From: an uncultured Candidatus Saccharibacteria bacterium
GTDB lineage: Bacteria > Patescibacteriota > Minisyncoccia > Phycocordibacterales > DATDWN01
NCBI GenBank assembly: GCA_964603545.1
Contig: CAZRVD010000001.1
Location: forward strand, 1,001 to 57,520
Reading direction: 5' to 3'
DNA: 56,520 nt
Shown: piece after piece, positions 6,590-39,510 of the stretch
Numbering within the stretch: the stretch's first letter is position 1
Layout: every line of letters begins with the position of its first letter
Made by a program: the position numbers and the translations under genes
Notes under the pieces: generated by a model
Told to the model about the DNA's origin: nothing
Databases searched by the model: none
Seen by the model: only the letters and a program-made list of their open reading frames with translations

Positions 6590-7513
6590 ATGACAAATAA
6601 TAAAACAATCTTAGCTGTAGTTTTAATCATAATTGTCGGAATAGCGACTTATTTTGGGTATTATAAAAATACGCGTGTTTCTGATTTGGAAACTGGAGCA
6701 AATCCAAAAAATGCAACATATAAAATTGTTGGAGAAAATGTAACTTTGGTTAACGGTGAAGAGAGCCACCCTTCTGCTCCAGGTTCAGCAAGTATGACTG
6801 TGACTAAATACTTTGGAAACGAAGTAAGTTATGACTTTGATAAGGATGGAAGGACTGATACAGCATTCATACTGACCCAAAATGCTGGAGGTAGTGGGAC
6901 TTTTTATTTTCTAGTATATGCGTTAAACAAAGAGGGTGGATATGTTGGTTCTGAAGGTCTTTATATAGGAGACAGAATAGCCCCACAGACAACAGAGTTA
7001 TCTAAAGAAGTTGGTAAAGAAGATCTCGTTATTGTTAACTATGCAGATAGAAAGCCAGGTGAAAGTTTTGCTGTCGCTCCATCACTCGGTAAGAGCTTAT
7101 GGGCCAAACTTGATCTAAAAACAATGCAACCAGGTGAAGTGGTTCAAAATTTTGAAGGTGAGGCAGACCCAAAGAAAATGACTCTCACAATGAAAACTTG
7201 GGGTTGGGTAAAAACAATGTTAAACGATGGGAGTATTGTAACCCCAAAAAGTCCTGAAAAATTTAAGCTGATTTTTAAAGATAGTAAAACATTTTCCGCA
7301 ACAACTGATTGTAATAGTGTGAGCGGAGAATACAGGGTTACTGGAGACAAAATAGTGTTTGAGAAAATGATGTCCACTCTTATGGCTTGTCAGGACTCAC
7401 AAGAGTCTGTTTTTACAGGATATTTACAAAACACATCTAGCTATTTGTTTACTTCTAAAGGAGAACTTGTTCTTAATCTAAAATATGATAGCGGTTCTGT
7501 GATTTTTAGGTAA
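6590..7513 (+). CDS. Membrane-anchored META (HslJ-like) domain protein
   Basis: TDCNS and STLMAC motifs; N-terminal TM. Confidence 0.8.
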   Translation: MTNNKTILAVVLIIIVGIATYFGYYKNTRVSDLETGANPKNATYKIVGENVTLVNGEESHPSAPGSASMTVTKYFGNEVSYDFDKDGRTDTAFILTQNAGGSGTFYFLVYALNKEGGYVGSEGLYIGDRIAPQTTELSKEVGKEDLVIVNYADRKPGESFAVAPSLGKSLWAKLDLKTMQPGEVVQNFEGEADPKKMTLTMKTWGWVKTMLNDGSIVTPKSPEKFKLIFKDSKTFSATTDCNSVSGEYRVTGDKIVFEKMMSTLMACQDSQESVFTGYLQNTSSYLFTSKGELVLNLKYDSGSVIFR

Positions 7514-7528
7514 CAATTAAACAGTATT

Positions 7529-8110
7529 ATGAAAACATATCATTATGTATTAGCTATTTTACTAATACTGATTTTAGGCTCTTGGTATTACTCACTAAAA
7601 AAAGAAGTTTTAGAAAACAATTTATACACAGTTTATAAAAACGAATCTTTAGGTTTTTCTATAAAAATTCCAAAAGATTTTACTGTTGATGAAAAATATC
7701 AGTACCAAGTTAACTCAAGTACCGTAATCTCGGGAGTGAAATTTACAATTCCAGAATCTTTGAAAGAGGGAACAAATCTTTCTTCTGATACATACATAAG
7801 TGTTGAAGCTAAGCCTGGAGCTGTTAATTCCTGTAGCGCTGAAATATATCTAGACAATTCTGTTTCCTCTGGATTTATAGATAGCGGGGGGCACAGGTAT
7901 TCAATGGCTACCTTTAGTGGTGCAGCTGCTGGCAACAGGTACGATGAAACAGTTTTTGCCACACCAGTAGATGGTGGTTGTATTGCTGTTCGATATTTTG
8001 TGCACTATGGAGTCTTTGAAAACTATCCAGAAGGAAGTATATCTAGGTTTGATGAAGTTTCCCTTAAATCATTATTTGATTCCATTAGAGAAACATTGGT
8101 TTTGGATTAA
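7529..8110 (+). CDS. Membrane-anchored hypothetical protein (PsbP-like start)
   Basis: TM followed by YKNESLGFSIKIP; GAAAGNRY. Confidence 0.6.
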   Translation: MKTYHYVLAILLILILGSWYYSLKKEVLENNLYTVYKNESLGFSIKIPKDFTVDEKYQYQVNSSTVISGVKFTIPESLKEGTNLSSDTYISVEAKPGAVNSCSAEIYLDNSVSSGFIDSGGHRYSMATFSGAAAGNRYDETVFATPVDGGCIAVRYFVHYGVFENYPEGSISRFDEVSLKSLFDSIRETLVLD

Positions 8111-8130
8111 ATTACTGATATAATTCTTAT

Positions 8131-8469
8131 ATGAAAATATTCACACATTTACTTGTTTCAGCGGTAGCAATTATTATTACAGCCTATCTTCTTCCTGGTG
8201 CCACAGTTACACTAGTTAGTGCTTTGATTTTAGCTGTTGTTTTAGGGATAATAAATGTTTTTATAAAACCGGTTGTAAAACTGATAACCCTACCACTTAC
8301 GATAGTAACTCTTGGGCTCTTTTCTCTAGTTATAAATGCACTTTTTGTGCTATTAGCATCTAAAATTGTTCCAGGGTTCAGTGTCGCTGGTTTCTGGACA
8401 GCTTTTTGGTTCTCAATTATTCTTTCTCTGGTAAATGCCTTGTTTAATAGGTTTAAAGACGAAGATTAG
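8131..8469 (+). CDS. YvlD/DUF360 4-TM ('holin-like') membrane protein
   Basis: N.FIKP...ITLPL...TLGLFSLVINA signature. Confidence 0.88.
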   Translation: MKIFTHLLVSAVAIIITAYLLPGATVTLVSALILAVVLGIINVFIKPVVKLITLPLTIVTLGLFSLVINALFVLLASKIVPGFSVAGFWTAFWFSIILSLVNALFNRFKDED

Positions 8470-26599: not shown

Positions 26600-26689
26600 G
26601 GAGAAATGCGAGAGTGGTTTAATCGGCAGTCCTGGAAAGACTGTGTATCGGAAACGGTACCAAGGGTTCGAATCCCTTTTTCTCCGCCA
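26600..26689 (+). tRNA. tRNA-Ser(GGA)
   Basis: Acceptor GGAGAAA/TTTCTCC, anticodon arm CAGTC-CTGGAAA-GACTG, long variable arm, AAGGG-TTCGAAT-CCCTT, discriminator G, encoded CCA. Confidence 0.97.
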
Positions 26690-28034: not shown

Positions 28035-28579
28035 CAGTACACATTACATACTTCGTACACGGGACAACAATGGATAACGAGAAAAAAATTTCATCGGGTT
28101 GGTCCGACGTTGAACTTTCCGATCTTGGAATACAGCAGTCAATTGCGCTAAAGGAAAAAACAAAAGATAAAAAGTTTGATGTAGTTTTTTGTTCTGACTT
28201 ACAACGCGCGATAAAGTCAGCAGAGCTTGCTTGGGGCGGAATGCACGAAATCATTCCAGACAAAAGATTGCGCGAATGCAATTATGGAAAACTGAACGGT
28301 GCTGCATCTGCAATAGTTGAACCAATGCAAGAAGAAGAATGTATTCTAAAGCCATTTCCAGAAGGGGAGAGTTATGAAGACGTAAAAGCTCGAATGGCTG
28401 ATTTTCTAGAATCTCTCAAAAAGAATTATGACGGAAGAAATGTTGCGATCGTTGGTCATAAAGCACCACAACTTTCTCTAGATGTTTTAATCCATGGTAA
28501 AACTTGGAAACAAGCACTCGCAGAAGATTGGCGAAAAACCCACTCCTGGAAACCCGGCTGGGATTATGAGTTGGAATAA
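28031..28579 (+). CDS. Histidine phosphatase family protein
   Basis: FVHG.T (RHG variant), SDLQRA, LRECNYG, GES, VGH. Confidence 0.85.
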   Translation: MTVHITYFVHGTTMDNEKKISSGWSDVELSDLGIQQSIALKEKTKDKKFDVVFCSDLQRAIKSAELAWGGMHEIIPDKRLRECNYGKLNGAASAIVEPMQEEECILKPFPEGESYEDVKARMADFLESLKKNYDGRNVAIVGHKAPQLSLDVLIHGKTWKQALAEDWRKTHSWKPGWDYELE

Positions 28580-28590
28580 TTATTCCTAAC

Positions 28591-28609
28591 CAAATCCCTC
28601 CGTCTCCGC
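28591..28609 (+). other. tRNA-Ser-like 3'-end remnant (att-like direct repeat)
   Basis: CAAATCCCTCCGTCTCCGC versus tRNA end CGAATCCCTTTTTCTCCGC (15/19 identical). Confidence 0.6.
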
Positions 28610-28640
28610 ATAGAATTAGACAATTTGTTATAATACCCAC

Positions 28641-29426
28641 ATGAAATACGTATATATAATTTTAGGACTACTTATTATCGGTGGAGCGTTTCTCTTTTAT
28701 AAAAGCGATAAAACAAATACAAACATGACACAAAACGAAAATGTAGAAACAAAACAAAGTCCGGTAACAGTAACACCAATCTCGCACGCATCAGCAGTTT
28801 TGAAATGGGATGATAAAATTATTTACATGGATCCTGTCGGTGAAGCCGAGGATTATGCCAGTCAACCAAAAGCCGACATCATTTTGATAACAGATATTCA
28901 CCAAGATCATTTTGATCCAGACACTATTTCTGCAGTTTCAAAAGAATCTACAACCGTTGTTGTTCCTCAAGCTGTTTTCAATTTATTAAAAACAAAACCA
29001 AACAAAGTCGTGGGTTTAGTCGTTTTAAACAATGGTGAAAAAATTATTCCTCCAAACTTTTCTGCAAATATAGAAGCAATGCCAATGTACAACCTCCCTG
29101 AAAAAACAGATGCTTTTCACACAAAAGGTAGAGGAAACGGCTACCTTGTAGAAAAAGATGGTTTCAGAGTTTACATCGCGGGGGACACAGAGGGCATTCC
29201 AGAAATGCGCGCTTTGACTGACATAGATATTGCTTTTGTTCCAATGAATCTACCGTACACTATGAGCGTACAAGATGCAGCGGAGGCAGTTCTCGCTTTC
29301 AAACCAAAACAAGTTTGGCCATACCACTACCGTGGTCCTGATGGTTTAAGTGACGTCGGTCTTTTCAAATCCCTGGTCAACGCTGGTAATCCAAGTATCG
29401 AGGTAGTCCTAGGTAAGTGGTATTAA
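28641..29426 (+). CDS. Membrane-anchored MBL-fold metallo-hydrolase
   Basis: HAS, DP, ITDIHQDH, YIAGDT, PYTM, PYHY. Confidence 0.88.
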   Translation: MKYVYIILGLLIIGGAFLFYKSDKTNTNMTQNENVETKQSPVTVTPISHASAVLKWDDKIIYMDPVGEAEDYASQPKADIILITDIHQDHFDPDTISAVSKESTTVVVPQAVFNLLKTKPNKVVGLVVLNNGEKIIPPNFSANIEAMPMYNLPEKTDAFHTKGRGNGYLVEKDGFRVYIAGDTEGIPEMRALTDIDIAFVPMNLPYTMSVQDAAEAVLAFKPKQVWPYHYRGPDGLSDVGLFKSLVNAGNPSIEVVLGKWY

Positions 29427-29453
29427 ATTCCAAAATTTTACAAACTGGATTCT

Positions 29454-29556
29454 TGTGCCGGGGTGGGGTGAGAAGTGATGGGTATCACTTCGCAAGGCCG
29501 GAGGCTGATGAGCCGAGGCGGGGTCGCGGAATTTTTCAGTAGAAAAATATTTGTGA
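29454..29556. other. GC-rich multi-hairpin element at the left edge of the defence island; minus strand ends like a tRNA-Leu 3' end
   Basis: Hairpins GAAGTGAT-GGGT-ATCACTTC, GGCT-GATG-AGCC, TCGCGGAATTTTTC-AGTA-GAAAAATATTTGTGA; reverse strand ends CCCCA-CCCCGGC-A. Confidence 0.5.
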
Positions 29557-29635
29557 TAAAAAGTGGTATTGTTTGGAATTGGTCCATGTCATTTTGACCA
29601 TAGATAAATGCATCCAAAAGTGGTAGAGTTTTAAA

Positions 29636-31093
29636 ATGTTTGAGAACTCATTTAAAAACATAGATCAAGTACTCCACACTGACTCTGGGTCGGCGACTGA
29701 ACTTGACTATGTGGAGCAGACTTCGTGGATCCTTTTTTTGAAATATTTAGATGATTTGGACCAGACCAAGAAGACAGAGGCGGCGCTGGCTGGCAAGAAA
29801 TATGAATACATTCTAGATGCTCAGTATCGATGGGATGCGTGGGCATGTCCTAAAGGAAAGGATGGAAAGATAGACCATCACAAAGCGATGACTGGTGATG
29901 ATCTAAATGATTTTGTGAATGGCAAATTGTTCCCTTATCTTAAGAAGTTTAAGAATCCTGTTGCGGATTCAAATACTATTGAATATAAGATTGGCGAAAT
30001 CTTCAGTGAATTGAAGAACAAAATCTCGAGTGGTTACAAACTGCGTGAGATTTTGAACATTGTGGATGGAATGCACTTCCGTCTTTATGAAGAGAAGCAT
30101 GAACTATCGCATCTCTATGAGGCAAAGATCGCAAAGATGGGAAATGCTGGACGAAATGGTGGCGAGTATTATACTCCACGCCCGCTCATCAAAACAATAG
30201 TAAAAGTTGTAGATCCTAAGATTGGAGAGACTATCTATGATGGTGCGTGCGGTTCAGCAGGATTCTTAGTGGAGTCATACAACTATCTCACTGAAAATCA
30301 AGCAAAGTTATCATCTGCACAGATGGCTACACTGCAGAATAAGACATTCTATGGCAAGGAGATAAAGTCGCTCGCATACATCATTGGCATCATGAACATG
30401 ATTCTGCACGGTATAGAAGCACCAAACATCCGGCACATGGATACGTTGGCACAGAACATCAATGATATTCAGGAAAAGGATCGCTACAACGTAATTCTGG
30501 CAAATCCTCCTTTCGGTGCAGGTATAGGGAGAGAGATTCAACAAAACTTTCCTATTAAGACTGGTGAGACCGCTTTTCTATTCCTTCAACACTTCATAAA
30601 GATTCTTAAGGCGGGAGGACGAGCAGGAATTGTTATTAAGAACACATTTCTTTCAAACACAGATAATGCCTCAGTAAGTCTACGTAAGCTACTTTTAGAG
30701 AACTGCAATTTGCACACGGTGTTAGATCTGCCCGGGGGCGTATTTGCGGGTGCAGGAGTAAAGACAGTGGTGCTTTTCTTTGAGAAGGGCAAACCTACAA
30801 AGAAAGTCTGGTTCTACTCACTCAACCTTGGTCGTAACTTAGGCAAAGGCAATCCTCTTAACGAAGTTGATTTGGCGGAGTTTATAAAGCTACAGAAAAC
30901 AAAAGCAGATAGTGAAAACTCATGGAGTGTTGATGTTTCTAGTGTAGATCAAGAGACTTTTGATCTGTCAGTAAAGAATCCTAATAAGAAAGATGAGACT
31001 GTGCTACGAACACCCGATGAAATCATCAAGGAGATGGATAAGCTCGATACTGAAATCAAGAGCAGTATTTTGAGCATCAAGAAAATTATATGA
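29636..31093 (+). CDS. hsdM: Type I R-M methyltransferase subunit
   Basis: GEYYTPR, DGACGSAGFL, NPPF. Confidence 0.95.
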   Translation: MFENSFKNIDQVLHTDSGSATELDYVEQTSWILFLKYLDDLDQTKKTEAALAGKKYEYILDAQYRWDAWACPKGKDGKIDHHKAMTGDDLNDFVNGKLFPYLKKFKNPVADSNTIEYKIGEIFSELKNKISSGYKLREILNIVDGMHFRLYEEKHELSHLYEAKIAKMGNAGRNGGEYYTPRPLIKTIVKVVDPKIGETIYDGACGSAGFLVESYNYLTENQAKLSSAQMATLQNKTFYGKEIKSLAYIIGIMNMILHGIEAPNIRHMDTLAQNINDIQEKDRYNVILANPPFGAGIGREIQQNFPIKTGETAFLFLQHFIKILKAGGRAGIVIKNTFLSNTDNASVSLRKLLLENCNLHTVLDLPGGVFAGAGVKTVVLFFEKGKPTKKVWFYSLNLGRNLGKGNPLNEVDLAEFIKLQKTKADSENSWSVDVSSVDQETFDLSVKNPNKKDETVLRTPDEIIKEMDKLDTEIKSSILSIKKII

Positions 31094-32520
31094 AGTTAAA
31101 GTCAATCAAAATCAAGAATTACAGGAGCGTTGAAGAAATATCATTTGAAACCACTGCTCTAAGTGATGGAACTTTCACATATGGTCTGATTGGCGTTAAC
31201 GAGGCCGGAAAGTCAACAATTTTAAAAGCTCTAGCGCTTAAGGACGGCTTAAAAAATGCAAAAGGAGAGAAATTACCATTAGCGAAGGATTTCAGAGATA
31301 AGAATGAGTCTATTGAGATCGAATATTTATATAATTTAGAAAAAGTTGACGTTGATGATATTAGAAATCATTTAAAAACTGATCCACCACTAGCTGATGA
31401 CGACATTGATTTTTCTTCAGTTAAGTACACCGCCTCTTTTGAATATGATAAGCCAGGACAAACTTTTGAAAGTTTGGAAATAACTAACTTAGATGAAAGT
31501 AATCCATCTAAAGATGCAGTTGAGGAAAAGCTCAGGTCTCTTATTTCAAAGAAGACTCATCAGGCAATTTTTTGGACTGCAGAGGATAGATATTTGATAT
31601 CCCAACCTATAAACTTGGCTCAATTTTCTGAAAATCCTGACGATATCTCATTACCTCTTAAGAATTGTTTCGCACTAGCCGGAATTAGCGGGAAAACGGC
31701 TATTAAAGAAAAGATCGGACTAATTTCAGAATCCACTGAAAGAGAACAGCTTGAAGACACGCTCAGTAAAAAGGTCAGTAAGCATATAAACAATGCGTGG
31801 CCTAAGCACAAGATAAAAATTACATTCAATATCTCAGATGGCCTAATCAATTTTCATGTTCATGACCTAAAAACCACTAGTAAGGCAAAGACTGCGGATC
31901 AAAGGAGCGATGGGTTTGGTCAGTTTGTATCCTTCCTGCTGACAATCTCAGCTCAAAATAAAAATGATGAACTTTCAAACACAATTCTTTTACTTGATGA
32001 ACCTGAAACTCACCTACACCCTCAAGCACAAGAAGACTTACTCAAGGAACTGATCACAATAACCGCAAATAAAAGAAATAATATTGCGTTTTTTGCAACC
32101 CACTCAAATTATATGATAGATAAAAAAGATTTGAGTAGGAACTATAAGATTTCTAAAGATGGACACGGGACTGAAAGAGAGCAATTTGACAGGAAAGTTT
32201 CTACTTATGCAAGCGTCACTTATGAAGTCTTTGAAATCTCAAGTGGAGATTACCACAATCAACTTTACGATCTGTTAAGAGAACAATATGCAAAGAGTGT
32301 TAATAAAGACCCTGATGAAGTAGGAGTCAAGGAATTTGACGTTGCCTTTTTCCAACATGTAAAGAGTTTGAAGCTAGAGTATCCATACAAAGGAAAATCC
32401 AATACTACTACATTACCTACATATGTCCGTAACGCTATTCATTATCCTGAGAATCAGAGTGAAGAATTCGAGGATAAGCTTAAAGAATCAATCGAACTTT
32501 TAAAAAGTTATGAATCCTAA
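31090..32520 (+). CDS. ABC-type (AAA_15/AAA_21-like) ATPase with small C-terminal putative effector domain
   Basis: IKNYRS, Walker A GVNEAGKST, signature RSDG, Walker B LLLDEPETHLHP, ATHS; C-terminal YVRNAIHYPEN. Confidence 0.85.
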   Translation: MKLKSIKIKNYRSVEEISFETTALSDGTFTYGLIGVNEAGKSTILKALALKDGLKNAKGEKLPLAKDFRDKNESIEIEYLYNLEKVDVDDIRNHLKTDPPLADDDIDFSSVKYTASFEYDKPGQTFESLEITNLDESNPSKDAVEEKLRSLISKKTHQAIFWTAEDRYLISQPINLAQFSENPDDISLPLKNCFALAGISGKTAIKEKIGLISESTEREQLEDTLSKKVSKHINNAWPKHKIKITFNISDGLINFHVHDLKTTSKAKTADQRSDGFGQFVSFLLTISAQNKNDELSNTILLLDEPETHLHPQAQEDLLKELITITANKRNNIAFFATHSNYMIDKKDLSRNYKISKDGHGTEREQFDRKVSTYASVTYEVFEISSGDYHNQLYDLLREQYAKSVNKDPDEVGVKEFDVAFFQHVKSLKLEYPYKGKSNTTTLPTYVRNAIHYPENQSEEFEDKLKESIELLKSYES

Positions 32521-33703
32521 TTGGCAAACAAAAAAACTCGGTGATCTTTATGACATTACCTCGAGTAAGCGGGTTTTTAAGTCCGAATGGAAAAGAAACG
32601 GAGTACCATTTTATAGAGCCAGAGAAATAGTTAAATTGGCAAAACAGGGATATGTAAATAATGATCTATTTATCTCTGATGAAATGTACAAGAAGTATTC
32701 AGAGAAATACGGCGCCCCAAAAGAAGGAGACATCATGGTTACCGGAGTAGGCACGTTGGGTATCTGTTATGTAGTGAAAAAAGATGACAAGTTTTATTTT
32801 AAGGATGGAAATATAATTTGGCTTCGAACAAAAAATGAAGCAGATTCTAGACTAATTGAGTATGCATTTAAGTCAGACGTTTTTAAAAAACAAATTAATG
32901 ATGGCAAGGGCGCCACAGTAGGAACATACACGATTATTAAGGCTAAAAATACAAGCATCCCCTTGCCATCATTAGATGAGCAAAAACGAATTGCAAATAA
33001 GCTTGATGAGGTTTCTGAGAAAGTGACGAAAGCGAAAGACAATGCGGAGAAGAACCTACAAAATTCAAAGGAGCTTTTTGAGTTGTATTTGCAGAGCGTG
33101 TTTTCGAATCCCGGCAAGAATTGGGAGGAGACGAAACTCGGTGATGCTTATGATGTTAGAGATGGGACACATGACTCACCTCGATATCAAAAAGAAGGCT
33201 TCGCTCTAATAACTTCAAAAAACCTGAAGAGGGATTTGCTTAATTTCAATAAGGTTAAATATATTTCAGAAAAGGATTACAAGAAAATAAACGACAGAAG
33301 TAAGGTTGATAAGGAAGACATATTGTTTGCAATGATTGGGACAATTGGTAATCCTGTTGTCGTGGAAGTCGAGCCTAATTTTGCAATAAAGAATGTGGCT
33401 CTGTTTAAAATTCCAAAAGAACAAAGTGCTTATTTTTTGAAATACTTTCTCGATTCAAGGTTTGTAATTGATAAAATGATGAGTGAGGCGAAGGGAACAA
33501 CACAGAAGTTTGTGGGATTGGGATACCTGAGGAGTTTTAAAATAAAGTTGCCACCTCTGGTTGAACAAAAAACAATCGTAAAAAAGCTTGAAATTCTTTC
33601 GTTGGAAACAAGAAAGCTTGAGAAAATATACGAGCAAAAACTGTCTGATCTTGAAGAACTTAAGAAGTCGATCTTAAGCAAAGCTTTTCACGCTGAACTA
33701 TAA
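32510..33703 (+). CDS. hsdS: Type I R-M specificity subunit
   Basis: Two TRDs: W..KLGD.YD twice, IPLPSLDEQ and KLPPLVEQ, SILSKAF. Confidence 0.95.
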   Translation: MNPNWQTKKLGDLYDITSSKRVFKSEWKRNGVPFYRAREIVKLAKQGYVNNDLFISDEMYKKYSEKYGAPKEGDIMVTGVGTLGICYVVKKDDKFYFKDGNIIWLRTKNEADSRLIEYAFKSDVFKKQINDGKGATVGTYTIIKAKNTSIPLPSLDEQKRIANKLDEVSEKVTKAKDNAEKNLQNSKELFELYLQSVFSNPGKNWEETKLGDAYDVRDGTHDSPRYQKEGFALITSKNLKRDLLNFNKVKYISEKDYKKINDRSKVDKEDILFAMIGTIGNPVVVEVEPNFAIKNVALFKIPKEQSAYFLKYFLDSRFVIDKMMSEAKGTTQKFVGLGYLRSFKIKLPPLVEQKTIVKKLEILSLETRKLEKIYEQKLSDLEELKKSILSKAFHAEL

Positions 33704-33710
33704 TAAACAT

Positions 33711-36029
33711 ATGAACGAATCAGAAACACGAGCTGAATACATCGACCCAATGCTTAAGGCAAGCGGATGGGGTGAAGTCGATGGATCAAGAGTCCTTCGT
33801 GAATTTCGTATTACTGAAGGCAAAATTCAAACTGGTGGTAAACGAAGTAAGCCAGAAATTGCTGACTATATTTTGGTCTATAAGAACCGCAAGATTGCTG
33901 TGATTGAAGCAAAGCAGGCAGAGCTACCGGCAACTGAAGGTGTTGCACAGGCAAAGTCGTATGCAGAGAAACTACATATTGATTACACCTACTCCACGAA
34001 TGGCAAGGAGCTCTATCAGATTTCAATGAAGTCTGGACAAGAGGGAGAAGTTAAAGCATTCCCAACACCTGATGAATTGTGGGCAAAGACATATTCAGAT
34101 CAGAATGAATGGAAAGAAAAGTTTACTTCCGTCGCAATTGAGGGCGATCATGGCAAACGTTATTACCAAGAGCTTGCAATCAACAATGCTCTCGATGCTG
34201 TAGCGGAAGAGAAGACACGAATACTGCTTACCATGGCAACAGGAACAGGAAAGACAGCTGTAGCAGCACAAATTGCGTGGAAGCTATTTCAAACGAGGTG
34301 GAATCTCAAACGAGATGGTACACGAAGACCACGAATTCTTTTCTTGGCGGATAGAAACATTCTCGCAGATCAGGCGTTTGGTAACGACTTTTCTATTTTC
34401 CCTAGTGATGCACGAGTACGCATAAACCCTCTCGATATTCGCAGACGTGGTGGTGTGCCTATGGGTGGAAGTATTTACTTCACAATCTTCCAGACGTTTA
34501 TGAGTGGTGCGGATGATACTCCGTATTTTGGTGAATACCCACCAGACTTCTTTGATTTTATTATTATTGACGAGTGTCACCGTGGTGGTGCAAATAATGA
34601 GGGTAACTGGCGAGGGATATTGGAATACTTTGCTCCGGCCGTACAACTAGGACTCACAGCTACTCCAAAAAGAAAGGACAACGTAGACACATATAAATAC
34701 TTTGGTAAACCGGTATATATTTACTCACTCAAGCAAGGAGTAAATGATGGGTTTCTAACACCATTCAAAGTAAAGCGCATCAAGACAACGCTTGATGACT
34801 ATATCTATACCTCTGACGATCAAATTGTGGAGGGAGAGGTTGAAGAAGGAAAGATCTATGAAGAAGCAGATTTCAATAAGATCATTGTGATTAAGGAGCG
34901 TGAGGCAAAGCGTGTGCGAGTGGTGCTTGATGAGATAAATCAAAATGAGAAAACGATTATTTTCTGTGCGAATCAAGATCACGCACTTGCGGTGCGAGAC
35001 TTGGTCAATCAGATGAAAGATAGTAAGGATCCAAATTACTGTCAGCGTGTGACTGCGAATGATGGCGCACGAGGTGAACAATATCTACGTGAGTTTCAAG
35101 ATAACGAAAAAACTATTCCGACTATTCTGACGACATCACAAAAGCTCTCTACGGGGGTAGATGCAAGGAATGTGCGTAATATTGTGCTCATGAGACCAGT
35201 CAATTCAATGATTGAGTTTAAGCAGATTATTGGTCGTGGAACTCGTCTTTTTGATGGCAAGGAATACTTTACTGTCTATGACTTTGTGGATGCGTACCAC
35301 CATTTTGCTGACCCTGAATGGGATGGTGAACCAGTAGATGAGACTACGGAAACAGAGCCTCCTAGAGGACCCGTAGGTCCAAAACCACTACCAGAGCCTT
35401 GTCCTGTTTGCGGTCAGTACCTTTGTGTTTGTGGGGTTGAATTATCAAAGAAGAAATTAAAAATAAAATTACGGGATGGTAAGGAGCGAGAGATACAGCA
35501 CATGGTCTCAACCTCATTTTGGAGCGCAGATGGTAAACCAGTATCGGTGCAGGAGTTCATGGATAATATGTTTGGCGCAATGCCGGAATTCTTTAAGAGC
35601 GAGGAGGAGCTCCGGAAGATATGGTCTAATCCTGTGACTCGAAGGGCCTTTCTAGAGAAGATCGCCGCTATTGGGTATGGCAAGGATGAATTGGAGATAC
35701 TTCAGAAGATGATTGATGCAGAGAATAGTGATCTATTTGATGTTTTGAATTATGTTTCTTTCTTGAACCCGATAATTTCTAGAACTGAGCGTGTGGGTCA
35801 GGCAAAGGCGAGTATATACGATGGGCTGGATGACAAACAAAAAGAGTTTCTAGATTTTGTCTTGTCTAAATATGAAGAAAGGGGAGTGGAAGAATTGGAT
35901 GAGGAGAAGCTACCTGTGCTTTTGAATCTCAAGTATCACGCCATTGCTAATGCTGAACAATCTCTTGGTGATGTAGATAAAATCAGGACCGTGTTCTTTA
36001 ATTTTCAAAAACTTTTATATTCAAAATAA
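33711..36029 (+). CDS. hsdR: Type I R-M restriction subunit (EcoEI-like length)
   Basis: ADY..VIEAK nuclease, MATGTGKT, DECHRG, GLTATP, LSTGVD, QIIGRGTR. Confidence 0.95.
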   Translation: MNESETRAEYIDPMLKASGWGEVDGSRVLREFRITEGKIQTGGKRSKPEIADYILVYKNRKIAVIEAKQAELPATEGVAQAKSYAEKLHIDYTYSTNGKELYQISMKSGQEGEVKAFPTPDELWAKTYSDQNEWKEKFTSVAIEGDHGKRYYQELAINNALDAVAEEKTRILLTMATGTGKTAVAAQIAWKLFQTRWNLKRDGTRRPRILFLADRNILADQAFGNDFSIFPSDARVRINPLDIRRRGGVPMGGSIYFTIFQTFMSGADDTPYFGEYPPDFFDFIIIDECHRGGANNEGNWRGILEYFAPAVQLGLTATPKRKDNVDTYKYFGKPVYIYSLKQGVNDGFLTPFKVKRIKTTLDDYIYTSDDQIVEGEVEEGKIYEEADFNKIIVIKEREAKRVRVVLDEINQNEKTIIFCANQDHALAVRDLVNQMKDSKDPNYCQRVTANDGARGEQYLREFQDNEKTIPTILTTSQKLSTGVDARNVRNIVLMRPVNSMIEFKQIIGRGTRLFDGKEYFTVYDFVDAYHHFADPEWDGEPVDETTETEPPRGPVGPKPLPEPCPVCGQYLCVCGVELSKKKLKIKLRDGKEREIQHMVSTSFWSADGKPVSVQEFMDNMFGAMPEFFKSEEELRKIWSNPVTRRAFLEKIAAIGYGKDELEILQKMIDAENSDLFDVLNYVSFLNPIISRTERVGQAKASIYDGLDDKQKEFLDFVLSKYEERGVEELDEEKLPVLLNLKYHAIANAEQSLGDVDKIRTVFFNFQKLLYSK

Positions 36030-36041
36030 TAAATAAAATAT

Positions 36042-36983
36042 ATGTCACTTTTTAAAAAACAAAATGAAAATATAGAATTGGTAAGAGAAAAACCTTTTGC
36101 ATTAGAAAAAGAGTTGCAAAAAATAACGGAGAGTAATTTAAAAGATGTTTTTGGTTTTGACTTTGTTGCGAGTGAATTTCAACATAATGATTTGAGAATT
36201 GATACTCTTGCATTTGACGGAAATCTGAATACATTTATAGTTATTGAATACAAACGAGAAAAAAGTTTTAGTGTTATAGATCAAGGGTTTGCGTATCTAT
36301 CTCTTATCTTAAATAATAAAGCCGAATTTGTTTTGGAATATAATAAGAAATTTAAAAGTAATAAAGAAAAAAAGGATTTCGACTGGTCACAAATGAAAGT
36401 TTTGTTCATAACAAGATCTTTCACAGTTCACCAGTTAGAAGCAATTAATTTTAGAGATCTACCTATTGAATTATGGGAAGTAACAGGATATGAGAATGAT
36501 TTAATTGATTACTCCCAGGTAAAGAAATCAGGCGCTAAGGCCTCTATTGATTCATTGGGTTTGAAGAATAGTGAAGTGCAGAAAATTTCCCGAGAAGTTA
36601 AGAGCTATTCTGAGGAAGATTATTTAAAGAGTAAGCCAGACGGGGTAGGTAAGAAGCTCTTTGAAATGTTAAAAGAAAAAATTCAAATCATTGACACAAA
36701 TTTGGTTCCTCATCCTACAAAATCGTATATATCTTTTCAGATTCCAAACAATACAAAGAATATTTTTTATTGTCATATTTTCGCAAGTAAAATAAAAATT
36801 GATTTTACACGGGCTGAGCCAAAGGATTTCAAGGATCCTGAAAATAAAGTTTTTTATAACGAAAATAGCATGAAACATTATAATCAACATATTTCTTCAG
36901 TTGAAATGAGTAACGAGAAAGAACTCGAGTATAGCATATATTTAGTTCAACAAGCATACGATAGATTTATAAAAGAGAATTAA
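36042..36983 (+). CDS. PD-(D/E)xK (NucS-like) nuclease domain + DUF5655-like domain protein
   Basis: LEKELQ, RIDTLAFD..IVIEYK..Q...Y; C-terminal K.YISF..QAY. Confidence 0.7.
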   Translation: MSLFKKQNENIELVREKPFALEKELQKITESNLKDVFGFDFVASEFQHNDLRIDTLAFDGNLNTFIVIEYKREKSFSVIDQGFAYLSLILNNKAEFVLEYNKKFKSNKEKKDFDWSQMKVLFITRSFTVHQLEAINFRDLPIELWEVTGYENDLIDYSQVKKSGAKASIDSLGLKNSEVQKISREVKSYSEEDYLKSKPDGVGKKLFEMLKEKIQIIDTNLVPHPTKSYISFQIPNNTKNIFYCHIFASKIKIDFTRAEPKDFKDPENKVFYNENSMKHYNQHISSVEMSNEKELEYSIYLVQQAYDRFIKEN

Positions 36984-37005
36984 AGTATAGATAAAAAATA
37001 GTTGT

Positions 37006-37710
37006 ATGGAAAAATTTGAATTTCCTGGAGAATTAGATTATATAAGTCCAATAAAATTAATTGATAAAGAAAATCAAGATGATTTTAGTAGCTTTTTTCT
37101 TATTTTAGCAATGGTGTTTAATGATTTAAAAAGTCTGATATTTGTACAAAAGTTTGTCGAAGATAATTATCGAAAGCCAGAAATTGATGAAATTTCAGTA
37201 CAAATGGGTGAATGGGGTGGAATAATGACTCATACAAACAAATTAATTGTATCAACTGTAAATGAATTTTTAATATTTCTTGAAAAAAATAAAGATATTA
37301 CCTCTAGTCTAAGATTTTCTTTTTTATTAAAAAATCTAACTAAAAATGAAAAAGCAAATTGGACAAAAATAATTGATCCAAATAAAGACGAATCATCTGT
37401 TATTTCCAAAATCGCAAGAATTAGATCTAATGTTTCTTTTCATTACGATCATTCCAAAGAGGAACTTAGAAGGGGGTTTATCAGAAGTTTTTTTGGTGAA
37501 AGTAAAGGAATTCTTCAACACAAGAAGGCTTATTTTTCCCTTGGAAGAGATATGAGAACCACAAGATTTTTTTATGCAGATGCTGCTGTAGAAGATTATG
37601 CGAGATCACTACTTAGTGAAAAAGATATTAAAGTTGTCAGAAGTACAATTGATACTATGAATTTGACCATTCAATCACTTTTATCGGCTTATATCAAATC
37701 GGTAAAATAG
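37006..37710 (+). CDS. Hypothetical protein, HEPN-like
   Basis: Helical, AT-rich; IRSNVSFHYD is an R-x5-H motif. Confidence 0.55.
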   Translation: MEKFEFPGELDYISPIKLIDKENQDDFSSFFLILAMVFNDLKSLIFVQKFVEDNYRKPEIDEISVQMGEWGGIMTHTNKLIVSTVNEFLIFLEKNKDITSSLRFSFLLKNLTKNEKANWTKIIDPNKDESSVISKIARIRSNVSFHYDHSKEELRRGFIRSFFGESKGILQHKKAYFSLGRDMRTTRFFYADAAVEDYARSLLSEKDIKVVRSTIDTMNLTIQSLLSAYIKSVK

Positions 37711-37737
37711 CTATAATTTTTAATATTCATTCCAATT

Positions 37738-37787
37738 CATCCCTACATTATACAGTGAACTATAGTTCACTGTATAATGTAGGGATG
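37738..37787. promoter_or_regulatory. Perfect 50-bp palindrome holding the dinB -10 box, start codon and a central GAAC-N4-GTTC box
   Basis: CATCCCTACATTATACAGTGAACTA|TAGTTCACTGTATAATGTAGGGATG. Confidence 0.8.
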
Positions 37788-39017
37788 TCAAAGAGTCGAG
37801 TAATTTTTCATATGGATGGGGATGCCTTTTTTGTCGGGTGTGAGGTCGCCAAAAATCCAAAACTAAAAGGACTCCCTGTGGTAACCGGGCAAGAGCGCGG
37901 GATTGTTTCTGCACTTTCATACGAAGCCAAAGCACTCGGCATAATTCGTGGTATGCCTATTTATCGTGTAAAGAAAAACTTTCCACAAGTTTTAATTTTA
38001 CCAGGGGATTATGCATCGTACGTTTCATACTCCGAAAAAATGTTTGATATCGTGCGTAGGTACGCCGATGGTGTAGAAGAGTACAGTATAGATGAATGTT
38101 TTGCAGATCTTACAGGACTTCACAAACCTCTTTACATGTCATACAAACAAATAGCGGAGAGAATAAAAAAAGAAGTTGTGGCGGAACTTGGACTTTCTGT
38201 TTCTGTGGGGCTCGCACCAACAAAAGTTTTGGCAAAAGTTGCATCCAAATGGAAAAAGCCAGACGGACTGACTGTTATTGAACCAGAAAACATAATGAAA
38301 TTTTTATCACAAACACCGATAGATAAAATTTGGGGTATTGGTCCACGCACCGGAGAGCACTTAAGACAAGTGGGAATAAAAACAGCGGGGGATTTTGCAG
38401 GAAAAGATATGACCTGGGTTCGGAATAATTTTTCTAAACCATATATAGAGATATGGCTGGAGTTAAATGGAGTCTGTGTAAACCAAGTTGATCCAAAACC
38501 AAAAACAACATATTCATCTGTTCAAAAAACTAGAACTTTTTACCCAACAACAAACGACAAAGTTTTTCTGCTTTCGCAAATTTCCAAACACACAGAGGAG
38601 GCCTGTCGCAAAGCTAGGTATTACTCTCTTGTCCCAAAAAAATTTTCTTTCTTTTTGAAAAGTCAGGATTTTAAATATTTTTCTCACACTGTAGTTTTGC
38701 AGGCACCTACCAACGCCCCAGAAACTTTGGTGAGTCTGGCCCGCTTTCATTTAAACAAAGTCTGGCGAGCGGGTGTACAGTTTCGCACCGCCGGAGTAAC
38801 ACTTTCAGAACTTGAAGCTGAGGATGTAAAACAAGGAGATTTATTTGGCAGTATAGAAAGGACTAGTAAGTTTGAAACTATTCACAAACAGATAGATAGT
38901 CTAGAAGAAAAGTTTGGCAAAGGTGTGGTGCATCTCGGCTCTACTCACAAAGCACTAAAAAACAAAAAAATTAGTACAGACTCGGACGACCTCTCTCGCG
39001 ACCTACTTTTTTTATAA
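37785..39017 (+). CDS. dinB: Y-family DNA polymerase IV
   Basis: HMDGDAFF, SYEAKALG, YSIDE, LAKVAS..KPDG, IWGIG. Confidence 0.93.
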   Translation: MSKSRVIFHMDGDAFFVGCEVAKNPKLKGLPVVTGQERGIVSALSYEAKALGIIRGMPIYRVKKNFPQVLILPGDYASYVSYSEKMFDIVRRYADGVEEYSIDECFADLTGLHKPLYMSYKQIAERIKKEVVAELGLSVSVGLAPTKVLAKVASKWKKPDGLTVIEPENIMKFLSQTPIDKIWGIGPRTGEHLRQVGIKTAGDFAGKDMTWVRNNFSKPYIEIWLELNGVCVNQVDPKPKTTYSSVQKTRTFYPTTNDKVFLLSQISKHTEEACRKARYYSLVPKKFSFFLKSQDFKYFSHTVVLQAPTNAPETLVSLARFHLNKVWRAGVQFRTAGVTLSELEAEDVKQGDLFGSIERTSKFETIHKQIDSLEEKFGKGVVHLGSTHKALKNKKISTDSDDLSRDLLFL

Positions 39018-39021
39018 AACA

Positions 39022-39068
39022 AAACCACCTCCCGTACAGCAACATTTGTGCTGGGGGAGGTGGGGTTT
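39022..39068. terminator. Bidirectional terminator hairpin between convergent genes
   Basis: CCACCTCCC..GGGAGGTGG with A/T flanks. Confidence 0.75.
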
Positions 39069-39510
39069 AGCGCAGAGCGTTCGCCACTGCGTCAGCGTCG
39101 ACCTTGTCGACCGTGATGATCACGACGTCCCTACGGCCGAAGAACATCATGTTCTCGGTGTAGCAGGATGCCTGCAAGACGTTCCGCGCGACGGCACCAT
39201 GCAGTTTGCGAAGAGGGGTGGGGAGTTCGCTCTGTGCGATCTCCACTTGTTGCCCCATGTGCCCAAGGACCCAAACGGATCCCGACTTCTCATCCTGCCC
39301 GGCGGGCATGACCTTCGGTTTGAAGGTTAGGATGCTTGGGACCGGCGTCTGTCCGAGCTTCTTTGCGAAGCTAAAGCACATGTCGACAAATACATCGTCG
39401 CTTGCCGTGACCGTAGGCACATATGACGAGGTGTCCACGACGACCGTGGTCTGGGCGCTGGCGCCGGAGCTGAGTACAAGGATGAAAAGGGAGATCGGGA
39501 CATACTTCAT
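39067..39510 (-). CDS. Secreted hypothetical protein, GC-rich gene
   Basis: TTGACA-17-TACCAT promoter (39559-39531), GGAGG SD, ATG 39510, signal peptide ending ASA-QTT. Confidence 0.75.
   Translation of the reverse strand: MKYVPISLFILVLSSGASAQTTVVVDTSSYVPTVTASDDVFVDMCFSFAKKLGQTPVPSILTFKPKVMPAGQDEKSGSVWVLGHMGQQVEIAQSELPTPLRKLHGAVARNVLQASCYTENMMFFGRRDVVIITVDKVDADAVANALR

Follow-up and report, generated by a model that had tools for sequence, protein, structure and literature searches.

An OLD-type ABC ATPase with a HEPN-like C-terminal domain encoded between hsdM and hsdS of a Saccharibacteria type I restriction-modification operon

The hsdM-X-hsdS-hsdR operon and the ATPase part of X

The window analyzed here, a 56,520-nucleotide (nt) stretch of an uncultured Candidatus Saccharibacteria bacterium (contig CAZRVD010000001.1, positions 1,001 to 57,520), carries a type I restriction-modification (R-M) operon in which an additional gene, here called X, lies between the methyltransferase and specificity genes. 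All four genes are co-directional, in the order hsdM-X-hsdS-hsdR. The methyltransferase subunit gene hsdM (29636..31093, + strand) encodes 485 amino acids (aa) matching Pfam N6_Mtase (219.6 bits, 8e-65) and HsdM_N as well as the PADLOC model MTase_I (529.5 bits, 2.1e-159). An open reading frame (ORF) and translation check placed X at 31090..32520 on the + strand, with an ATG start and a 476-aa product. Downstream lie the specificity subunit gene hsdS (32510..33703, +; 397 aa; Pfam Methylase_S in two stretches, 3.1e-28; PADLOC Specificity_I) and hsdR (33711..36029, +; 772 aa), which encodes an EcoAI/FtnUII-family restriction subunit (NCBIfam NF046051, 813 bits against a cut-off of 550; Pfam ResIII and EcoEI_R_C). 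With NF046051 above its cut-off and both HsdM and HsdS present, the operon is assigned to type IB (EcoAI family). The host genome is 672 kb in size and 99.7% complete, and contains a single copy of X.

X overlaps both of its neighbors. The hsdM/X overlap measures 4 nt, with the junction reading ...ATT ATA TGA and the ATG of X inside it (ATGA), and hsdS begins 11 nt upstream of the TAA end of X, an overlap of 11 nt. Both overlaps had been claimed in an initial annotation of the sequence and were read directly at the junctions. Promoter- or terminator-like sites within 28500-39200 were no more frequent than in shuffled sequence, and none was found between the genes of the operon. A GC-rich stretch upstream of hsdM (29450-29530) was rejected as a feature (fold z -1.13, no Rfam match at E<=1).

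Residues 1-365 of X (31090..32184, +) make up an ATP-binding cassette (ABC) ATPase of the OLD/AAA_15-AAA_21 type, as identified by Pfam, the PADLOC Old model, AlphaFold2 and Foldseek. Pfam scores exceed the gathering cut-offs for AAA_15 (75.2 bits against 32.1) and AAA_21 (69.8 against 27), and the matches cover residues 1-345 alone. Invariant in 116 aligned homologues are the Walker A residues G35-N37-E38-G40-K41(S42), the signature Q271-R272-S273-(D-G)-F276, the residues of Walker B and beyond (D303-E304-P305-E306) and the H-loop T337-H338-S339, which together bear out the full ABC motif set described in the initial annotation. The top PADLOC model is Old (5.1e-26), aligned over positions 2-346 of 578 and so in its ATPase part only, followed by AriA, GajA, NsnB, PtuA and HEC-01A. 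Among PDB sequences the best match is the OLD nuclease 6p74 (E 5e-5). An AlphaFold2 model of X built from the 116-sequence alignment (pLDDT, short for predicted local distance difference test, 94.3; predicted template modeling score, pTM, 0.90) retrieved SMC/Rad50 heads, PtuA, OLD 6p74 and GajA in Foldseek. The least conserved stretch, residues ~81-160, is a hypervariable insert with block conservation of 0.27-0.46; the corresponding region of ABC ATPases has been named Insert 1 and proposed to determine specificity (Payne et al., bioRxiv 10.1101/2024.01.29.577857).

Pfam yielded no Toprim or OLD-like_TOPRIM match in X, and no match to AAA_13 (PF13166) at E<=0.1. The next-nearest relatives of X are longer (608-640 aa) and share 30-41% identity with it over residues 1-~380. 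OLD-like_TOPRIM was detected in 7 of 10 of these longer relatives that were sampled, five of them above the Pfam cut-off. An IQ-TREE phylogeny of 39 rows, from which fragments and split genes (L007, L013, L014, L018, L027, L030, L034 and others) were left out, separated 8 longer relatives, 7 of which were also in the TOPRIM sample, from 31 X-type proteins at 100/100 support. Because the longer relatives carry TOPRIM at this position and split from X with such support, the C-terminal tail of X sits in the slot of a nuclease effector. We conclude from these comparisons that the ATPase of X belongs to the OLD/AAA_15-AAA_21 lineage and not to that of PrrC, and that the missing TOPRIM reflects a domain swap rather than an unrelated invention. 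The initial annotation had set X apart from OLD nucleases for want of a TOPRIM motif; the absence holds, but the ATPase itself is of OLD descent.

The C-terminal domain

The remaining ~110 residues (366-476 and the stop codon; 32185..32520, +) contain the conserved elements D387-Y-H389-N-E/Q391, R447-N448-x-x-H451-Y452 and S467. Among 7998 candidates scored, 870 were homologues of X at E<=1e-3, nearly all of them 460-490 aa long and with the tail conserved throughout. A 29-sequence profile of the tail, searched against 1.84 billion representatives, matched 1047 clusters (50% identity) at E<=1e-3 and 535 at E<=1e-10; in 150 of the 150 matches listed, the matched segment lay at or near the C-terminal end. 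Pfam architectures of 31 sampled tail carriers comprised 27 with AAA_15/AAA_21, one of which also had a weak, sub-threshold PIN match, and four short proteins with no Pfam match. In a structure search of the ESM Atlas, too, many AAA_15/AAA_21 clusters ended in the tail fold, and one of these clusters had 3025 members. By features, the top ESM Atlas scores were 0.77 and, for a 127-aa cluster labeled AAA_13, 0.75; both fall below the 0.9 line and serve as leads only. The C-terminal domain of ~110 aa that the initial annotation had delimited is, on the strength of this conservation, a real and constrained domain.

Modeled alone (366-476), the tail gave a confident AlphaFold2 prediction (pLDDT 90.2, pTM 0.82) with predicted helices at 373-381, 386-403, 413-424, 442-451 and 460-475 and a hairpin at 431-440 (full-length numbering). 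The segment between the helix bearing E391-x3-K/R395 and the motif helix is variable; members of the stand-alone clade have it shorter by 26 residues. At least 16 of the 50 rows in a list of structural matches to the tail are HEPN proteins, either by entry title or as described in Anantharaman et al. (2013, PMC3710099) and the Payne et al. preprint. The best matches are MNT-associated HEPNs (1jog, 1wwp and 8xdj/5yep). Other rows include 2hsb, 4nqf, 1wol, Csm6, Csx1, GlnE and DrrA (two entries for each of the last four), MtlR, YutE, SO_3166 and a Las1 complex. Cas13b, Roquin, HI0074 and the C-domains of aminoglycoside nucleotidyltransferases also occur among the matches, and these we take to be HEPN-like.

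At the family level, the conserved residues of the tail resemble those of a HEPN domain. Within TLPTYVRNAIHYPEN, which spans residues 441-455, the window protein carries R447-N448-A-I-H451-Y452. In the model this R/H motif closes the second-to-last helix and extends into the loop ahead of the final one, the place at which PMC3710099 describes the Rx4-6H motif of HEPN domains; the same source describes an Ex3[KR] feature of helix 2, which E391-x3-K/R395 in the second tail helix fits. The HEPN signature places Rx4-6H where helix-3 ends and has a polar N, H or D following the arginine. Across the 116 aligned sequences, R447 is found in 114, position 448 is N in 95, H in 18, D in 2 and T in 1 (N, H or D thus follows the arginine in 115), and position 451 is H in 102, N in 7, D in 5, A in 1 and F in 1. 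Position 452 is H in 83, Y in 30 and N in 3, with H452 creating Rx4H. A histidine at 451 or 452 is present in all 116, and the family consensus R-N-x-I-H-H holds the canonical Rx4H. Elsewhere in the tail, S467 is present in 116 sequences, H389 in 115, D387 in 112, E391 in 107, N390 in 105 and K/R395 in 64. Mutual-information pairs between 394/397 and 449/452/456/459/460 probably reflect clade structure and were not used as contacts.

Several results weigh against a HEPN assignment, or against catalysis by the copy in the window. Pfam gave no match for residues 355-476, even with the threshold relaxed to E<=10, and no HEPN family. Foldseek, run on the tail model as the initial annotation had proposed, returned no match at E<=0.001 in the PDB (best E 2.2, unrelated helical proteins) or among the BFVD viral models (best E 1.5). 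An hhalign comparison of the tail profile with 10 HepT sequences was not significant (Prob 0.2, E 0.29); the sole local alignment it produced laid R-N-x-x-x-H on R-N-x-x-x-H. In the sample of 31 carriers the tail accompanies one kind of ATPase alone, unlike promiscuous effector domains. The window copy has R447-x3-H451, the short spacing about which the initial annotation had been cautious, together with Y452 (alongside R397) and Q391/L395, and so misses both the Rx4-6H spacing and the acidic residue of helix 2; the combination of Q391 and Y452 occurs in just 6 of the 116 sequences, which places the window protein in a minority. Finally, since positions 397 and 452 covary as H/H (56 sequences) or R/Y (30), with R397 in 30 of 30 Y452 sequences and in no H452 sequence, position 452 may have a structural and not a catalytic role. 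Two further searches with the tail were negative as well: PADLOC gave no match at E<=1, and the profile's best hit among PDB sequences was spurious (E 0.98).

Taken together, an ABC ATPase followed by a HEPN-like tail is the best structural reading of X and has moderate support. We infer a HEPN-type fold for the family as probable, and as somewhat less so for the window copy, which departs from the HEPN signature at Q391 and Y452 and to that extent qualifies the HEPN-like label given to it initially. RNase activity of the family is a closer call, for which we estimate slightly better than an even chance; it is somewhat less certain again for the window copy, because Q391 replaces the glutamate and Y452 the histidine.

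The same observations could be explained by a non-catalytic tail, an adaptor that binds nucleic acid, nucleotide or protein, with X as an accessory ATPase that senses or modulates for a neighboring system; X might then tune restriction or recruit another nuclease instead of being a toxin. Some HEPN domains are non-catalytic binders (PMC3710099), and the related ABC ATPases AriA and PtuA, judged by the titles of the PDB matches, are scaffolds or sensors for separate nucleases. The atypical motif of the window copy and the confinement of the tail to one scaffold also suit such a role. Yet the tail replaces TOPRIM at the same position of an otherwise OLD-like protein, and the near-invariance of polar residues (R447, N/H448, a histidine at 451/452, H389, S467) resembles an active site more than an interface. 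Stand-alone members of the family, moreover, have no conserved partner that could act as the effector in its place. We consider this explanation improbable.

Genomic contexts of X homologues

The context set comprised 37 loci encoding a full or near-full member of the X family, five of which were uninformative or had no Pfam scan (L006, L007, L018, L030, L034). Of the 32 informative loci, 18 were R-M-linked, so that the neighborhood check sustained the R-M association proposed in the initial annotation. Twelve share the hsdM-X-hsdS slot: L001, L002, L003, L005, L008, L011, L012, L015 and L023; L004 and L017, which have cargo between hsdM and X; and L032, whose HsdM-like protein is an N6_Mtase. 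The other R-M-linked loci have the order hsdM-hsdS-X (L010), X directly after hsdR (L028), X fused to type III mod-res operons (L026, L027), X two genes from an ISP-like ResIII-Eco57I protein (L020), or a truncated X copy beside EcoRI-methylase and GmrSD fragments (L013). Seven loci have other defense or mobile-element neighbors: AbiC-like, Shedu and ParE genes in L019, HTH-M78 in L016, a retron-type reverse transcriptase in L037, integrases in L009 and L025, and transposases in L022 and L014. The neighbors in a further seven (L021, L024, L029, L031, L033, L035, L036) bear no such hallmark.

Several individual loci deserve mention. The gene order in L004 (2351-12768) is hsdM, Bro-N, Fic, HNH, X, hsdS, DUF3800, hsdR, and that in L017 (2884-12637) is hsdS, hsdM, SLFN/AlbA_2-HATPase_c_4, X, hsdS, hsdR; the X protein of L017 is 706 aa long, with a long low-complexity C-terminal extension. 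In L026 (2369-8485) the match to X starts at 7001, just before the res ORF terminates at 7004, and in L027 (221-5776) X lies ahead of mod-res. L037 (4964-8434) encodes a retron-type reverse transcriptase (NF038233, 208.7 bits, below the cut-off of 235), a 235-aa protein and an X homologue, and judging by these genes may be a retron with the ATPase-tail protein as its effector. The X proteins of L012 (a Paceibacterota bin, X at 6983-8428) and L023 (a Nitrosomonas bin, 7001-8428) are nearly identical on the tree, with terminal branches of 0.13 and 0.03, reflecting either a very recent cross-phylum transfer or a binning artifact.

The hsdM-X-hsdS loci are concentrated in one clade of 15 rows (100/93 support), made up of 11 such loci, L010, and L006, L009 and L016. 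HsdM identity to the window falls in three ranges across loci with this slot (62-91%, 34-36% and 23-27%), so at least three type I lineages carry X there. X identity does not follow HsdM identity: X and HsdM are, respectively, 50% and 78% identical to the window proteins in L008, 54% and 36% in L005, and 48-49% and 23-27% in L012 and L023. X has accordingly passed between three or more type I lineages with its slot retained; its divergence is faster than that of HsdM and HsdR and independent of theirs.

Retention of the slot raises the question of a guard in the style of PrrC. X would then be a physical fourth type I subunit, kept latent through HsdM/HsdS (or HsdR) and freed or activated only by a phage anti-restriction factor. 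PrrC provides the precedent (PMC3710099, PMC12707154). Translational coupling on both sides of X fits such a subunit, as do the well-supported clade of embedded loci, the persistence of the slot through at least three lineages, and an X-hsdS junction that stays intact even where cargo separates hsdM from X (Bro-N, Fic and HNH in L004, SLFN/AlbA_2 in L017). The tail insert helix 413-424 also marks R-M-coupled forms: of the 16 aligned rows that have it, 13 are R-M-coupled, and of the 13 that lack it, 2 are R-M-adjacent, although this split is confounded by phylogeny and largely amounts to one clade. Set against these points, stand-alone relatives keep all the conserved tail residues, so X can exist without a type I partner, and the relatives coupled to type III (L026, L027) and ISP-like (L020) R-M genes share no HsdM/HsdS surface. 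The rapid and independent divergence of X is hard to square with a conserved interface, and type I operons are described as landing pads for unrelated embedded defense genes (bioRxiv 10.1101/2024.01.29.577857); PrrC is cited in that preprint as found almost solely embedded. A predicted complex of HsdS and X scored 0.00 with no controls, which is evidence neither way. On balance a guard of this kind seems unlikely, while retaining some weight.

A particular form of guarding is put forward tentatively, and we regard it too as unlikely. In it, X would be an OLD-derived ATPase-HEPN "tripwire" placed on the HsdM2S core via tail helix 413-424, firing as an RNase when an anti-restriction protein jams the core. 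If true, it would be a guard convergent with PrrC that uses a different ATPase lineage, HEPN family and operon slot, kept in many phyla, candidate phyla radiation (CPR) genomes of ~0.7 Mb among them, and in no fewer than three type I lineages.

X could also stand outside defense altogether, as an OLD-like ATPase with a housekeeping role (e.g., DNA repair) that hitch-hikes in mobile R-M cassettes. The seven loci with ordinary, housekeeping-like neighbors, which count against a defense role, would be accommodated, as would tblastn searches with X that found no match in plasmids (E<=1e-20) or phages (E<=1e-10). Occurrence is sporadic, however, with the tail found at E<=1e-8 in 3 of 301 sampled genomes of the host phylum, the window's own included; the family is widely spread across phyla, with near-identical copies in different phyla; and the R-M, defense and mobile-element context is strong. 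The hypervariable, sensor-like insert likewise counts against a housekeeping role. We consider this explanation very improbable.

The surroundings of the operon in the window were also inspected. Directly after hsdR, a 313-aa gene (36042-36983, +) matches the PADLOC candidate defense gene PDC-S18 over its full length (E 5.8e-93), with weak DUF5655 and HSDR_N_2 matches alone in Pfam; on account of this match we regard the locus as a small defense island. A 234-aa ORF (37006-37710, +) in a stretch of ~29% GC (window mean ~37%) has no match in Pfam, PADLOC or NCBIfam and could represent additional cargo of the island. A DinB/UmuC-type Y-family polymerase gene (37755-39017, +; IMS, IMS_C, IMS_HHH) borders the island on the right, and a tRNA-Ser(GGA) gene (26600-26689, +) lies ~3 kb upstream of the R-M block.

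Proposed function and relation to known systems

The reading we favor, at about an even chance of being right, is that X is a self-contained, single-polypeptide sensor-effector of the OLD lineage, likely an abortive RNase, carried as R-M cargo and acting as a second line of anti-phage defense. It is favored because an OLD-type sensor ATPase is joined to a HEPN-looking tail in the nuclease slot, in a family that is found in R-M, defense and mobile contexts yet also stands alone. Thirteen stand-alone-type members have no conserved partner gene, and none was found in 20 non-embedded loci with flanking ORFs scanned. An autonomous cargo module is preferred to an R-M-dependent one because many relatives stand alone or lie beside type III or ISP R-M genes or a retron-type reverse transcriptase. 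The R-M-guarding effector proposed in the initial annotation is thus upheld as a distinct protein in a slot different from that of PrrC, with its guarding role disfavored by these relatives.

In the proposed mechanism, the N-terminal ABC ATPase with its hypervariable insert would serve as sensor or switch, and the C-terminal ~110 residues, in place of TOPRIM, as a divergent HEPN-like effector, which is most likely an RNase of metal-independent type that employs R447, N448, H451/H452 and H389. Translational coupling into the type I operon would have X produced and inherited along with the restriction enzyme. Once a phage had evaded restriction, a cue from the infection would switch the ATPase and free the RNase, and translation would halt in an abortive infection. 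By analogy, aberrant DNA or an anti-restriction protein might provide the cue: anti-restriction factors elicit the responses of PARIS and PrrC (PMC12707154; bioRxiv 10.1101/2024.01.29.577857), and P2 OLD reportedly acts as an abortive tRNase that DNA structures activate (bioRxiv 10.64898/2026.07.10.737580).

The ABC-HEPN combination is known from PrrC, RloC, APECO1_4465 and ERFG_01251, as is R-M embedding (PMC3710099). No Pfam model for the tail and no NCBIfam model for the X family was found. The PADLOC search suggested in the initial annotation returned the generic Old ATPase model for the window protein, and a family-specific PADLOC v2.0.0 model was found for 0 of 21 further members at E<=1e-30, save for a generic Old ATPase hit in one. 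The literature searched yielded no description of the family; the ABC ATPase classification of Krishnan et al. (2020) may cover the clade. Within these libraries and this literature, we regard X as an independent, OLD-derived assembly of the ABC-HEPN theme.

The pairing of an ABC ATPase with a nuclease (OLD, PARIS, Gabija, Septu, PrrC) is one of the main themes in bacterial immunity, and embedding in R-M loci is a recognized clue to new defenses. An OLD-type sensor in which TOPRIM has been exchanged for a HEPN-like domain offers a natural effector-swap pair for studying how the ATPase controls the nuclease, and the hsdM-X-hsdS clade makes it feasible to ask whether restriction enzymes acquired guards of the PrrC kind on more than one occasion. 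X is also one of the few defense genes kept in a 672-kb CPR genome.

Among known systems, the OLD nucleases (P2 Old; class 2 OLD, 6p74) share with X the ATPase lineage and the layout of a single polypeptide with an N-terminal sensor and a C-terminal effector. They differ in their C-terminal TOPRIM, which X lacks, whereas the X tail is helical, HEPN-like and confined to the X family, and the two groups form separate clades (100/100). PrrC and RloC resemble X in joining an N-terminal ABC ATPase to a small C-terminal HEPN-type domain (PMC3710099, PMC12707154), and PrrC further resembles it in being encoded inside a type I operon (type IC EcoprrI) and in being, like X, a presumed second-line abortive RNase. 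The PrrC/RloC ATPase is AAA_13, in contrast to that of X; prrC lies next to hsdR and X between hsdM and hsdS; and X has a different, uncatalogued tail and many relatives outside type I loci. The distinction from PrrC drawn in the initial annotation is accordingly retained. ERFG_01251-type proteins, which are compared with X by description alone, have an ABC domain fused to a "classical" HEPN nearer the MNT-associated HEPNs (Anantharaman et al., 2013, PMC3710099), and MNT-associated HEPNs are likewise the best structural matches of the X tail; unlike X, they are described as also having HEPN/TOPRIM-NTD1 and as CRISPR-linked.

MADS was set aside since matches to its equivalogs score below the NCBIfam cut-offs (MAD2, 85.9 against 720; MAD3, 25.7 against 420; MAD5, 62.9 against 400), as were the two-gene systems PARIS, Septu, AbiL and RloAB, since X has no adjacent TOPRIM, HNH or RloB partner and its neighbors are hsdM and hsdS. 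PARIS (AriA/AriB), Septu and retron PtuA/PtuB, and Gabija GajA nevertheless have ABC ATPase heads related to that of X and follow the same logic of a sensor ATPase plus a nuclease. In these systems the nuclease is a separate or fused TOPRIM or HNH protein, whereas in X the putative effector is the fused HEPN-like tail.

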